Shown piece by piece: positions 3,713 through 41,887 of a DNA stretch of 64,000 bases. Location: the NCBI GenBank assembly GCA_964188305.1, contig OZ076894.1; one strand, given 5' to 3'. Within the stretch, counting starts at the first letter, position 1; each line of letters starts with the position of its first letter. The notes below the pieces were generated by a model that saw only the letters and a list, made by a program, of their open reading frames with translations, was not told the origin of the DNA and did no database searches. Both the position numbers and the translations under genes were made by a program. This DNA is from Podarcis bocagei. Lineage: Eukaryota.

Positions 3713-3954
3713 TAGTGGTACCTCGGGTTACAGACGCTTCAGGTTACAGACACTTCAGGTTACAGACTCTGCTAACCCAGAAATAGTGCTTCAGGTTAAG
3801 AACTTTGCTTCAGGATGAGAACAGAAATCGTGCTCCGGCGGCGCGGCGGCAGCAGGAGGCCCCATTAGCTAAAGTGGTGCTTCAGGTTAAGAACAGTTTC
3901 AGGTTAAGAACGGACCTCCAGAACGAATTAAGTTCTTAACCCGAGGTACCACTG
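3713..3954. mobile_element. Tc1/mariner (Tigger-like) MITE, family B
   Basis: TIRs (C/T)AGTGGTACCTCGGGTTA / TAACCCGAGGTACCACTG with TA TSD; near-identical inverted copy at 36617-36858. Confidence 0.85.
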
Positions 3955-4829
3955 TATTCTACTAGACGTGGCTAGAAGTGGTTGAACCCATGGCACTCCC
4001 TAAAAAAATTGCAATTGTGCCCACAGGTATGAAAAAGTTGTTTAGCATTTGCATCCCACACACCTTCTACAGTTAGGGGGAGAGAACACACAGAATGTAC
4101 CTATAGCAAAGACAGGCCAGTAATCCTAGTGTTACCCAGTAGTTGGAAGGGCACCCTTGGTGTCTTCTATTGACCCTGCCTGAAGTGTATTAAACAGAGA
4201 TGAGCAGTCCCAGAGAGAAGCCACAGCTCAGGGACAGAGAACATTCACAGTTTCAGTCCTTGGCATCTCAAGTTCAAAGGTATCAAAATGGGAGAAGACC
4301 ATGGAGAGCTACTGTCAGGGAACTCCTTGGCAAAAAAAAAAAAGTCCAATGGTTGAAGCCAATGAAATCATTCAACTCATGGGATGATGTCTGCTTGTGG
4401 CACAGAATGTCCCCTCCCTCTCCTCCCTGCATGCACACCTCCCCAAATCTACTTTGAGGGGTTCTCCCACTCTCCAGAGCATATGGGGGGTTGCATACAG
4501 AAGGAGGGGAGAAGGAGGACAGGAGGTCTAATGCAATATGTTCCTTATGATCCTGTTCCTTATGTTCCTATCAGCTGCAATTCATTGGAGCATCCAGGGG
4601 CATTCCTGTTAGAATTCCTGCTCCATGATTGCAGTCATGGGATTGTTGTCTATCACATGACGGTGTATGTTTTGACTCCACAGAGTGGGAAGTGACGGAG
4701 ACAGGATGTTTGTGTTACTGTGTTCCATGAAGTGGGACTATTGTCCTTTGTTCTTTTTCTCTTTGCTGTCTGATGTTAGAGAGAGAGGGAGCCATGTTGC
4801 AGTGCTCTGTGTGTGTTTATATGTAAATA

Positions 4830-13020: not shown

Positions 13021-14880
13021 CATAGAATCATAGAATAGAATCATAGAATCATAGAGTTGGAAGAGACCACAAGGGCCATCGAGTCCAACCCCCTGCCAAG
13101 CAGGAAACACCATCAGAGCACTCCTGACATATGGTTGTCAAGCCTCTGCTTAAAGACCTCCAAAGTAGGAGACTCCACCACACTCCTTGGCAGCAAATTC
13201 CACTGTCGAACAGCTCTTACTGTCAGGAAGTTCTTCCTAATGTTTAGGTGGAATCTTCTTTCTTGTAGTTTGGATCCATTGCTCCGTGTTCGCTTCTCTG
13301 GAGCAGCAGAAAACAACCTTTCTCCCTCCTCTATGTGACATCCTTTTATATATTTGAACATGGCTATCATATCACCCCTTAACCTCCTCTTCTCCAGGCT
13401 AAACATGCCCAGCTCCCTTAGCCGTTCCTCATAAGCCATCGTTTCCAGGCCTTTGACCATTTTGGTTGCCCTCCTCTGGACACGTTCCAGTTTGTCAGTG
13501 TCCTTCTTGAATTGTGGTGCCCAGAACTGGACACAGTACTCCAGGTGTGGTCTGACCAGAGCAGAATACAGTGGCACTATTACTTCCCTTGATCTAGATG
13601 CTATACTCCTATTGATGCAGCCCAGAATTGCATTGGCTTTTTTAGCTGCCGCGTCACACTGTTGGCTCATGTCAAGTTTGTGGTCAACCAAGACTCCTAG
13701 ATCCTTTTCACATGTACTGCTCTCAAGCCAGGTGTCACCCATCTTGTATTTGTGCCTCTCATTTTTTTTGCCCAAGTGCAATACTTTACATTTCTCCCTG
13801 TTAAAATTCATTTTGTTTGTTTTTGCCCAGTTCTCTAATCTGTCAAGGTCGTTTTGAAGTGTGATCCTGTCCTCTGGGGTGTTAGCCACCCCTCCCAGTT
13901 TGGTGTCATCTGCAAATTTGATCAGGATGCCCTTGAGTCCATCATCCAAGTCGTTGATAAAGATGTTAAATAAGACCGGGCCCAAGACAGAACCCTGTGG
14001 CACCCCACTAGTCACTCTTCTCCAGGATGAAGAGGAACCATTGATGAGCACCCTTTGGGTTCGGTCAGTCAGCCAGTTACAAATCCACTGAGTGGTAGCA
14101 GAGTCAAGACCGCATTTTACCAGCTTCTTTACAAGAATATCATGGGGCACCTTGTCAAATGCCTTACTGAAATCAAGGTAGGCTATATCCACTGAGTTCC
14201 CTTCATCTACCAGGCTTGTAATTCTGTCAAAAAATGAGATCAAGTTAGTCTGACATGACTTATTTTTCAGAAATCCATGCTGACTATTGGTGATCACAGC
14301 ATTCCTTTCTAGGTGCTCACAGACTGTTTGCTTAATGATCTGCTCCAGAATCTTCCCTGGTATTGATGTCAGACTGACTGGGCGGTAATTATTTGGGTCC
14401 TCTCTTTTCCCCTTTTTGAAAATAGGGACAACATTTGCCCTCCTCCAGTCTGCCGGGACTTCGCCTGTTCTCCAGGAATTCTCAAAGATGACTGTCAGTG
14501 GTTCTGAGATCACATCTGCCAGTTCTTTTAATACTCTTGGATGCAGTTCATCTGGCCCTGGAGACTTGAATACATCTAAACTAGCCAAATATTCTTGTAC
14601 TGTCTCCTTAGTTATTCTGGGCTGTGTTTCCTTTGCTGAATCATTTGCTCCAAATTCTTCAGGTCGGGCATTGTTTTCTTTATCGGAGAAGACTGAGGCA
14701 AAGAAGGCATTGAGGAGTTCAGCCCTTTCTGTGTCCCCTGTTTGCATTTCACCATCTTCTCCTCTGAGTGACCCCACTGTTTCTTTGTTCTTCCTTTTGC
14801 TACGAACATACCCATAAAAGCCTTTTTTGTTGCTTTTAACCTCTCTAGCAAGCCTGAGTTCATTCTGTGCTTTAGCTTTT
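13021..14880 (-). mobile_element. 5'-truncated CR1 LINE, very young
   Basis: CR1-type (ATTCTATG)n 3' tail at 13021-13055, RT-containing ORF2, abrupt 5' truncation near 14880. Confidence 0.95.
13113..14879 (-). CDS. CR1 ORF2 reverse transcriptase, C-terminal part (no native start; 5'-truncated)
   Basis: 554-aa ORF with CR1 RT motifs ([54 protein letters not shown]); frame stays open upstream to the truncation ([30 protein letters not shown]). Confidence 0.93.
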
Positions 14881-17365
14881 GCTAAAAAGCAAAACTCCTT
14901 TTGTTGGGGAGTGTATTGTTTAGTGGTGTGTATACATTAGTATTGTTAATTGTTTTGATTATTTTTTATTAAGTTTTTTGTGTGCTTTGTATATTGTAAC
15001 TTTTTGTTGTGAACTGCCCCAAGACCTACAAGTATAATTTATTACACATGTATCAAATTATAATGATACCTTGGATGTTAGTATATTATTTTTGCCATAT
15101 ATGCATTCTTTATAGCAAGATGGCTGCAGTTAGTTCATGTATTCAAGTGGGAATTAAGTACGGTAAGTTCAGTTTTGGAGCTTTGAAGATAGTGGGTAAA
15201 GCAGTATTTTTGCTTAATTTGTTTGCTTTACACTCCTTTTATGGCTTTTAAAAATGCAATTGTTTTTATGCTTAATTCTGTTAACTGTTTTTAAAATGTT
15301 CTTTATTAACTTTCAGATTTTTAAAAGTTGCATTGAAACAAGTGGACAAAAATGTGTTGTGGAAATAAATATGTTCTGCAGCATGAACAAATGCATGTAT
15401 ATCCCGACTTTTTGCTCCATTGAATTTGGTAGGCTGAGCCATACACCCGAGGAAGCACATAGTATTCCATTCATCCTCAGAAGTCTGGGTGAGCATTTTC
15501 TGTAGCAGCCACTACATTATGGAATTCCCTCCCCACAAAGGTGTGTCTGGCCCCTTCATTGTACTGCTTTCATCATATACTGAAGACACACCTCTTTAAC
15601 CTGGGCTTGGACACCTGAGTTATATATTTTTAGGACCCACTCTAGTTGCGAGCATAGTTTGTTTTAAAATGCTTTAATGATGTGTTTTATATTGCTGTAA
15701 CCCACCCTGGGACTTTCTAGTGAAGGGAAGGTAAATAATAGTAGTAATAATAATAGCAATCCTTAATTGCTGCCTAGTATGAAAATGAACTGGTACCACT
15801 GAGACTGTTAAATCTTGCGCAGTTAATTGGATGATTCAATTTGGCACAATCACTTCACTGGATTTCCTCCCCTAATGAGCAGATTCCCTGTTCTCCCCAA
15901 ATGGATGTAGCAAACTACCAATAATGAAGTCAACCATCCCATGCCAGAAAATGCAGATGTGCTGGGCTTTGCGCTAGTGACTCCCAATGCCGAGTCCACG
16001 GAAAGCTTCAGCCAGGAATAGGTACCACGCCCAAAAGAGCCACAAAAGCTGTTCTTCTTGCTCACGCACAAAGCATGAACCTTCCCAACACTGGGACAGC
16101 ATTCATATCCAAGCCAAGAAGACCAACAAGAGCAACTGGGTGGGAAACAAGGGGAAATATGAATACACCATGAGTATACCCTTCTTCCATGCTCAAAGGA
16201 AGAAGCCAGCCATGAAATTCTGGTCTCCCAATGATCCCCTCAGGTGATTATAGAGGATGGGACAAAGGTAGGCTGCAGGCACTAGATTCATGGAAACATT
16301 GCACCCAACTCCCTAATGATTAAGCTGTGTGTGGTCTGCACTAAGACTTCAGTACTGTAGCTCAAGGTTCAGTACGACATCCTGGCTTTTAGAAGAACAA
16401 AGAACGAAAAAGTCTGGATTGAGCTACAGTGTGACAGCCATTATCAGAAACTGTTTCTGTGTGTTTCCTAGGACAACTAGGACAACATTTCTGTGTGCTT
16501 CCATAGCAACATAAACGTATTATGTCATAATGCAAAATACATCCACTATATACGGAAAAAATTTAAAATGGCTTGAACAACAGGACAACAGGACACAACT
16601 AGGAATCACGGTTCATATCTAGCAGATTTTCTCCTGGAATACATGTAATGTCAACCAATACTTAAAAGGTATATTGCTTAATTAACATTCATGGAGATAA
16701 TGGATTTCCCCCCTCCTGTGCAAATAAAACTCATATTTGGTTCTGGTTTCTACATTTCTTTGTAGTTATAATAGACCTTATAAGACATCTTCATTCTTTA
16801 CTTTGCCCTCTCCGTGTGCACCTGAGATGCATCTACATCTGTCATCACTGGTCATTACAAAACTTGTTGAATGTCTGCTGTTATCATTTGGGAGGGTGCA
16901 ATGCCGAAACTGTAGAGCTGCCAGTATCCATTGATGCAAAGAGGTTTGAAAGAATTATATGGAGAAGAATGCAATTGTGACTGAATTTGGCTTCCCAAAA
17001 GGAAAAGGAACGTTGGTATGAGTTTCTGGAAATGCGATTAAACTTGATTGCCTTACCGCTGTTTGGTGACTGTTTAATGCAATTCAAAATTCCACTTGTT
17101 CTCCTCAAACAAGACATAATTGCACCACAAGGTTCTTCATTGCATCTTGATCAGCTTAGTACTAATTAGCAATAATGTCTTATTTTATTATTTTAACACT
17201 ACTATGCCACCTCCTACACCAGCTCCAAGGCAATATACAGCCAATTTAAAAATACGTATCCAACACTCAAACTACAAAAGATAAAACCAGCTGGTAACTC
17301 AGGGCAGTGTTTCAAAGCACAGTAATTTGCTGGAGTCAAGCACTTGCAAAGGCTTGAACTACAAA

Positions 17366-22622: not shown

Positions 22623-22851
22623 CTTGCAGCATTTGGGATTTTTTAGTTTAGAGAACCGGTGAGCAAGAGCTGACATGACAGAAGTTTATAAAATGATGCA
22701 TGGCATGGGGAGAGTGGTGAGATGCTAGAACTCAAGACTATCCAAGCAAGCTGAATGCTGGAAGATTCAGGGCAGATAAAAGAAAGCTCTTCTCCACACA
22801 GCTCATAGTTAAACCATGGACCTCGCTCTCCCAGGAAGCAGTGATGGTCAC

Positions 22852-23286
22852 TGTCAGGGAACTGACATTGGAGCCAGAGGCGGAGGGAAGGCTCCCAAGT
22901 GATGCTGGAGAGGGACCCAGCAGGGAGAGAGGCAGCTCATCAGCTGGGGAAGGTAATCAGCGCAACACCAGGGACAAAGGGGGGCAGATGGGGGAATCGG
23001 CGAGAGGGCTCCAGGACTCCTCGCCGGACACCAGCGGGGAGAGCACGGGTCCTCCGCTACCCACACCCTCCCTGCGCAGAAGACTTCCGCGCAGGGAGAG
23101 TAGGAGGAGACTTGGCGTCAAACAGCTTTTATGCTGGAAAAGGTTTAAGAAACGCCCACTGACGGATTCTGCTAGCGACTGAAACAGCCACGAAGTGAAG
23201 GGCTGTCCAGACAGAAAAGGTTTAACAAGGCAACATAACCAGGAGAGGCGGCAACTTACGCACGAGCAACCCCTATATTCATTACA
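22852..23286 (+). mobile_element. Solo LTR (Gypsy-like), family I copy 1, inserted in an old CR1-like 3' remnant
   Basis: TGTCA...TTACA termini, perfect 5-bp TSD GTCAC, homologous to 26886-27318 and 41431-41867; the flanks rejoin as GTGATGGTCAC|CAACTTGGATGGCTTTAAAAGAGGATTGG. Confidence 0.88.
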
Positions 23287-26885: not shown

Positions 26886-27318
26886 TGTAATGATTCTAGG
26901 GGTTGCTTGTGTGTAAATCAACGCCACTCTTGGCTGGTTGCCTGAATGAACCCTTTCTGTCTGGACAGCCACACGCCCGTGGCTGTCTCAATCGCTGGCA
27001 GAATCCGTTAGTGGGCGTTTCTTGAACTTCTTCCAGCAAAGAAGCTCTTTGATGCCTAGTCTCCTCCTAGCCTCCCTGCGCGGAAGCCTTCTGCACAGGG
27101 AGGGTGTGGGCATCGGAGGACCCGTGCTCTCCCCACTGGTTCCCGGCGAAGAGTCTTGGAGCCACCTCGCCGATTCCCCCATCTGCCCTCCTTCTCCACT
27201 GGTGTTACGCTGATTTCCTTCCCCAGAAGATGTGCTGCTTCTCTACCTCCCGGGACGCTCTCCGGAATCCCTCTGGAGCCCTCCCTCTCCCTCTGGCTCC
27301 AATGGCAGTTCCCTGACA
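26886..27318 (-). mobile_element. Solo LTR (Gypsy-like), family I copy 2
   Basis: Reverse complement starts TGTCAGGGAA and ends CATTACA; TSD GTGCC/GTGAC. Confidence 0.86.
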
Positions 27319-41309: not shown

Positions 41310-41887
41310 CAGGCTTCCTCAAACTCGGCTCTCCAGATGTTTTTGGCCTACAACTCCCATGATCCCTAGCTAGCAGGACCACTGGTCAGGGATGATAGGA
41401 ATTGTAGTCTCAAAACACCTGGAGGGCTGATGTCAGGGAACTGACATCAGAACGAAAGGAGAAGGAGAGGCTCCCTGATTCTGCAGGAGAAGGTACCAGC
41501 CTCAGGGGGAGACGCAGCTTAGTAGAGGGGGAAGGAAATCGGCGTAACACCAGGGATCCAGGAGGGCAGATGGGGGAAGCGGAGGCAGAGCTCCGGGATT
41601 CTTCCCTGGACATCAGTGAGGAGAGCACTGGTCCTCCACTGCCCACGCCCTCCCTGCGCAGAAGACTCCCGTGCAGTGAGAGGCGGAGACGACTGGGAGT
41701 CAAACAGCTTTTATGCTGGAAAAGGTTTAAGAAACGCCCACAGACAGATTCTGCTAGCGACTGAGGCAGCCACGCTGAGATGGGCTGTGCAGTCAGGACG
41801 GTTTAACCCAGGCAATTAAGCTCCCTAACGGGGACAGTTTACGCACAAGTAACTCAACCCCATTACAGCCGAGTTTGAGAAAGCCTG
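41310..41887. mobile_element. hAT MITE interrupted by a solo LTR
   Basis: TIR CAGGCTTCCTCAAACTCGGC / GCCGAGTTTGAGAAAGCCTG, 8-bp TSD AGCTAAAG/AACTAAAG. Confidence 0.78.
41431..41867 (+). mobile_element. Solo LTR (Gypsy-like), family I copy 3
   Basis: TGTCAGGGAA...CATTACA, TSD GCTGA/GCCGA. Confidence 0.86.

Follow-up and report, generated by a model that had tools for sequence, protein, structure and literature searches.

An open frame in lizard solo LTRs is the C-terminal end of Pol in a chromovirus family

The three solo LTRs of the window (the whole 64,000-nt stretch of Podarcis bocagei DNA that was analysed) are best explained as remnants of an element whose pol continues into its 3' LTR, a reading to which we assign a probability of about 0.8. 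In full elements, the open frame that these LTRs share codes for the C-terminal ~109 residues of Pol, and its basic end is constrained at the protein level. The LTRs belong to a large lacertid family of Ty3/Gypsy chromoviruses, of Tf1/sushi type by its priming. The three copies and the parts of their frames are as follows.

22852..23286, + strand: solo LTR copy 1, 435 bp, subfamily A, TSD GTCAC/GTCAC
22853..23182, + strand: copy 1 frame, 109 codons plus TGA, the C-terminal tail of Pol/integrase in full elements
22853..22987, + strand: copy 1 codons 1-45, a Gly/Ser/acidic spacer, near-neutral by net dN/dS
22988..22990, + strand: copy 1 internal ATG (Met46), within U3, not conserved across the family
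23045..23179, + strand: copy 1 codons 65-109 (Pro, Arg-rich, LLCW, KRFKK), under purifying selection, with a predicted bipartite NLS (RR-x10-KRFKK)
23158..23168, + strand: copy 1 self-primer (11 nt), which can pair with the PBS of full elements, and putative U3/R border (transcription start)
26886..27318, - strand: solo LTR copy 2, 433 bp, subfamily B, TSD GTCAC/GGCAC
Within copy 2: premature TAG at 27245-27243 (codon 25), stop at 26990-26988, self-primer at 27012-27002
41431..41867, + strand: solo LTR copy 3, 437 bp, subfamily C, TSD GCTGA/GCCGA
Within copy 3: 110 codons open, stop at 41762-41764, self-primer at 41740-41750

An earlier note on this DNA had described the three solo LTRs, and most of its description stands. 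They are real, with TG...CA ends, lengths of 435, 433 and 437 bp and a common frame from LTR nt 2. Copies 1 and 3 are fully open (109 versus 110 codons), copy 2 keeps the frame with a single TAG at codon 25, the TGA is aligned in all copies and the three 64-aa peptides read as given there. Pairwise identity between the copies is 80-83% over their aligned parts; within the frame, copies 1 and 3 are separated by one in-frame 3-nt indel, and indels of 1-2 nt fall after the stop. A 5-bp TSD is present at all three sites, as had been claimed, but the TSDs are not all different: the left TSD of copy 2 is the same as that of copy 1, and copies 2 and 3 carry one mismatch. Six bases (GGTCAC) precede both copies 1 and 2 (22846-22851 and 27324-27319), which is probably chance; the wider flanks differ. 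Copy 1 was inserted into a repeat that we take to be CR1-like, and a joint in RNA reads (22814>23290) represents the uninterrupted type of its flank. AATAAA is absent from the window LTRs, as had been noted, and eight other hexamers were likewise not found in them; their single TATA 4-mer is at nt 423 of copy 1, consistent with the reported lack of a clear TATA box.

Each window copy has dozens of relatives with 96-98% identity across chromosomes, and solo copies are dispersed over all chromosomes. Genome searches returned 3,750-4,401 candidates with a DNA query and 10,742 with a peptide query, figures that are not copy numbers. The 90 best matches comprise 30 for each query and include the window copies; an exact 5-bp TSD flanks 72 of them, the frame is open to the aligned stop in 71, and 19 contain stops or frameshifts. 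A fourth subfamily-A solo LTR lies ~15 kb past the end of the window (G000:C9:56871349, L010). Near-identical elements that include internal sequence are strongly concentrated on contig C19 (G000), as would be expected of a non-recombining sex chromosome. Two candidate loci were rejected as clean two-LTR elements: L032, with two LTRs 9 kb apart, has a LINE between them and no internal region, and L031 belongs to a local duplication in which LINE pieces are nested.

Full elements are laid out with two TG..CA LTRs, a polypurine tract (PPT) and a TSD, and their internal sequence also holds gag (Retrotrans_gag, zf-CCHC), in the order gag, PR-RT-RNaseH-IN. In a natural copy, one frame of 1178 codons contains the Pfam domains RVT_1, RT_RNaseH, Integrase_H2C2, rve, SH3_Tf2-1 and Chromo (the last with E 2.2e-9, scoring over the cut-off) and terminates at the LTR stop. 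The chromodomain is followed by an acidic stretch, then by the PPT, read as Gly-rich ..EVD, and then by the LTR, whose TG is read within GAT GTC (Asp-Val); the stop is the same as in the solo copies. We took 63 loci chosen by similarity, several of them segmental duplicates, of which 60 had a scorable chromodomain motif; the LTR is reached in the VRE frame in 48 of these 60 3' ends and LLCWK in 38, and in the remainder the frame is broken by private stops or frameshifts. A C-terminal Pol tail was one of two readings offered earlier, and it is borne out by a pol in frame through the PPT into the VRE frame, together with selection on that frame.

Read-through into the LTR is also found in two distant families of the same genome, over ~116 codons of a 460-bp LTR in family E and ~219 codons of a 784-bp LTR in family D. 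The elements of both families are young, since their LTR pairs are >99% identical. Pol entries of Podarcis muralis in UniRef have the same ending, with 43-46% tail identity, and entry names that do not mention the tail. The 109-aa LTR frame matched no Pfam family, neither it nor the TIM region described below matched a solved structure at E<=10, and the ESM Atlas gave no usable match to the tail.

Openness of the frame alone is not beyond chance. It proves little, because such length is common for this composition: among composition-matched random 435-mers, 37% contain a 109-codon open frame in any frame and 3.5% in the exact frame. Chance does not account for the frame-specific dN/dS or for the in-frame junction with pol. 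Between subfamilies A, B and C, counted from individual copies only (28, 29 and 30, respectively), net dN/dS over the whole frame is 0.39 (95% 0.23-0.64), a value that, like all the ratios, is somewhat lowered because NG86 counts ignore transition bias, and that comes from three non-independent subfamily pairs and from best-scoring matches, which lean intact. Constraint is concentrated in codons 65-109, where net dN/dS is 0.14 (0.04-0.30) and net dS of 0.33-0.87 stands against dN of 0.03-0.10; the same codons give 2.80 and 1.66 in the other two frames, and the same frame past the stop gives 0.68. In a set of 17 copies with open tails, the basic LTR segment has the same dN/dS as the chromodomain (0.18 each) and codons 46-64 are weakly constrained (0.56). 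The domain that had been proposed as selected is constrained at its basic end, whereas its acidic 5' half, codons 1-45, is near-neutral (0.80, 0.39-1.65, between subfamilies; 0.75 in the 17-copy set).

Private changes in codons 65-109 comprise 29 synonymous, 50 missense and 6 nonsense changes, against a neutral expectation of 24.3, 58.2 and 2.5 (p=0.16). As these changes are indistinguishable from neutral, selection acts chiefly during replication of the element and not on solo LTRs in place. Over the whole frame, synonymous private changes are in mild excess (70 versus 53.6 expected, p=0.006) and nonsense changes are not depleted (8 versus 6.1 expected). The synonymous excess indicates that genomic copies are not perfectly neutral and likely reflects unsampled active sub-lineages.

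In full elements the PBS, two bases past the 5' LTR, is an 11-mer whose exact complement lies at LTR nt ~307. Across five lineages (subfamilies A, B and C, families D and E), differences in one member of the pair are compensated in the other, and pairing is perfect over 11 nt, or over 10 in one of two family-D copies. In self-priming of the Tf1/sushi type, as two papers describe it, the 5' end of the RNA acts as the primer (PMC4600332, PMC6317226). Transcription would start at the 11-mer, at position 23158 of copy 1, within the last eight codons of the frame. Because this places the putative start at nt ~307, 170 nt downstream of the ATG at nt 137, U3 would be wholly coding and the ATG would be absent from LTR-initiated RNA. 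In four raw RNA runs from a related lizard, 267-417 reads mapped to copy 1 or its flanking sequence, mostly with 85-95% similarity; these reads covered both strands of the LTR and showed no start or end site.

On the basis of these observations, we propose that transcription begins at the 11-mer, with Tf1-type self-priming. The genomic RNA would then contain U3 (nt 1-306) at its 3' end only, to be translated there by ribosomes that are completing pol. Gag-Pol would arise by -1 frameshifting, cleavage would leave the tail on integrase, and the tail may be disordered and act through short motifs. LTR-LTR recombination would then produce solo LTRs, in which the frame would be kept as a passenger while young and decay afterwards.

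Judged from its sequence, the tail could well serve nuclear import and/or chromatin docking of integrase, a role that we consider reasonably probable. A classical bipartite NLS has two basic residues, a 10-12 residue spacer and a basic cluster. The conserved basic end is likely such a signal, predicted from the pattern RR-x10-K[RK]F[KR]K, which is present in 17 of 18 copies; family E fits the pattern and family D does not. Family D ends in a basic cluster and SxxxLL(S/N)W with no KRFKK, protein P0015 has basic residues and then LL(C/S/N)W but an incomplete KRFKK cluster, and both families D and E keep the read-through and a basic..LLxW end. Because family D and P0015 have basic..LLxW without the full KRFKK, the deeper constraint may lie on a different short motif instead of a bipartite NLS. 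By eye, the HP1 PxVxL motif, the PIP box, the ASF1 B-domain motif and the nucleosome arginine anchor were compared with the basic end by their usual definitions, and none fits all families. C-terminal integrase NLSs are known from other LTR elements (PMC3605345).

A more specific reading, compatible with the Pol-tail explanation and adding a particular partner, is that the tail is mainly a host-factor tethering module, in which two upstream TND-interacting motifs (TIMs) would have LEDGF/p75 or HRP2 as their partner, while the basic..LLxW end would hold on to nucleosomes or another chromatin protein, steering integration. We advance it tentatively. Two motifs lie between the chromodomain and the PPT (L145:7531-7761), each a helix-like aromatic stretch, whose helical nature is deduced from sequence, followed by 8-9 acidic/Ser/Thr residues and FxGF. 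Both match the TIM pattern of a short helix, an 8-16 aa acidic linker and FxGF. In a review, a TIM is defined as a helix with a Phe/aliphatic anchor, an acidic, Ser/Thr-rich linker of 8-16 residues and FxGF, and tandem pairs, a precedent for the arrangement here, are described in JPO2 and others (PMC9987994). The FxGF part is needed for LEDGF and HRP2 binding, as stated in that review and in a preprint (PMC9987994; bioRxiv 10.1101/624023).

The motifs are more constrained than the adjacent spacers (dN/dS 0.16 and 0.10 versus 0.25 and 0.46) and better kept in family E (identity 55% and 54% versus 21% and 9%), and they are retained in P0001, P0002, P0008, P0010, P0015 and P0017, all of which favours tethering. 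Across 138 chromodomain-motif proteins, [FL]xGF occurs downstream in 10, nine of them relatives of the lizard element. The availability of a partner points the same way: the genome contains two genes with a LEDGF domain, one of them PSIP1, of which an exon matches Podarcis muralis entries at 100% identity. When residues 400-492 of lizard PSIP1 were modelled in complex with a 37-aa peptide of the first TIM, the score was 0.32 against a mark of 0.34, and 0.00 for three controls, a result that weighs on neither side. The chromodomain itself (L145:7390-7530) apparently lacks the first and third of three cage aromatics, at positions that we assume to correspond to those of HP1, a further point in favour; family E retains the first. 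The comparison used the description of type II chromodomains in PMC3059260. Against tethering, the match is to a short motif only, some copies and families deviate from it (LEGF, MEGF), and in family D a single FxGF follows a linker that is not acidic. The motifs are encoded neither in the LTR nor anywhere in the window. LEDGF itself would favour active gene bodies as targets.

A less favourable alternative is that conservation of the 3' frame is a by-product of DNA or RNA signals, namely the core promoter and the self-primer, pol merely having no earlier stop. The self-primer does overlap the last codons of the frame (PLTDS/PQTDS), and a Leu>Gln change in copy 3 fits its PBS; the LL codons lie 32 nt before the putative start in families A and D, a core-promoter position, and codons 1-45 are near-neutral. 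However, synonymous sites in codons 65-109 vary freely while amino acids are kept, in this frame only, Leu, Lys, Arg and Phe codons differ silently among subfamilies, and a T-rich run of subfamily A is missing from B. We regard this alternative as unlikely.

The second reading offered by the earlier note, a stand-alone accessory peptide of 64 aa whose translation would begin at the internal ATG of a spliced or LTR-initiated transcript, in the manner of nef or sag, is largely refuted and now seems very improbable. Of 18 open copies, 12 carry Met46/47, as do the three window copies, and most of the constraint lies downstream of the ATG. Yet the Met is missing from the other six open copies and from family E, no stop separates pol from the frame, the ATG lies in U3 upstream of the putative start, and codons 46-64, which would open the peptide, are weakly constrained. 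Least probable of all, and hardly credible, is host co-option with selection on solo LTR frames at genomic sites: a Podarcis muralis UniRef phospholipid-transporting ATPase entry (P0004) carries the final 45 LTR-coded residues in frame at its end, either an annotation artefact or exonisation, and private changes show the mild synonymous excess, but 19 of the 90 top copies have stops or frameshifts, nonsense changes are not depleted and copy 2 of the window is broken.

With the frame read as the end of pol, the lizard element resembles the Tf1/sushi chromoviruses (Tf1, Tj1, Sushi-ichi, Amn) in having gag and a PR-RT-RH-IN order with SH3 and a chromodomain. It also shares with this group a 5-bp TSD, the lack of env, none having been seen in the lizard element, and a self-priming PBS (PMC4600332, PMC6317226). 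Its TGTCAG..TACA LTR ends resemble the Sushi att motifs, whereas its LTR lacks the AATAAA of the fish Sushi LTR model, both as given in PMC3601003. The lizard Pol differs from that of the group by ~100 residues past the chromodomain and ~109 inside the LTR, with all of U3 coding. In the leading results of literature searches on chromoviruses, Sushi-ichi and lizard Gypsy or solo LTRs, we found no description of this tail.

Pol running into the 3' LTR is already known from plant CRM elements, and the lizard tail is a variant of that layout. In CRM group A, as in the lizard element, the pol frame extends into the 3' LTR; in contrast, a CR motif replaces the chromodomain there and the elements are centromeric, whereas the lizard element keeps its chromodomain upstream, is dispersed and is self-primed. 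It works like group A in layout and is not a member, and the likeness, drawn from layout alone, would be convergence. HIV nef and MMTV sag also overlap U3, as separate frames with their own start on a spliced mRNA; the lizard frame is instead the end of pol. Ty1 is a copia element whose integrase signal is not known to be LTR-encoded. That signal is described, like the predicted one in the lizard tail, as C-terminal, basic and bipartite, and as serving import and target choice. Lentiviral integrase binds LEDGF through its folded domains. The TIM/IBM carriers JPO2, IWS1 and MLL1 have the same helix, acidic linker and FxGF in tandem as the lizard tail; the known carriers in the review are cellular proteins, and the string 'transpos' is absent from it (PMC9987994).

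Selection at the protein level can extend over about three quarters of an LTR, taking in the entire putative promoter region, when this sequence codes for the end of integrase. As the last codons would also be an RNA primer, overlapping codes occur in a vertebrate retrotransposon with thousands of copies. For annotators, such ORFs in solo LTRs are Pol tails and not new genes. Taken with the upstream motifs, the sequences raise the possibility, held with less than even confidence, of a vertebrate chromovirus lineage whose integrase has a motif-bearing tail of ~210 residues, half of them LTR-encoded, combining tandem TIMs that mimic LEDGF/HRP2 partners with an LTR-coded basic..LLxW end kept across unalignable LTRs. 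The leading results of each literature query contained no account of a TIM in a retrotransposon integrase. If true, a retrotransposon would reach the lentiviral tethering factor by motif mimicry, and plant CRM would be joined by an independent second example of a U3-encoded targeting motif. If the FxGF motifs bind LEDGF/HRP2, they would give a peptide-level answer to site choice by vertebrate chromoviruses with a degenerate chromodomain.

Family D shows a further feature of distribution: by hand count, with lengths for some contigs, at least 27 of its 89 best matches on large contigs lie <1 Mb from a contig end, against ~3% expected, for which we propose subtelomeric targeting or retention of full-length copies. 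Elsewhere in the window there are many SINE-like and DNA-transposon-like repeats, and a 607-codon open frame at 13113-14936 (- strand) is presumably a CR1-type LINE reverse transcriptase.
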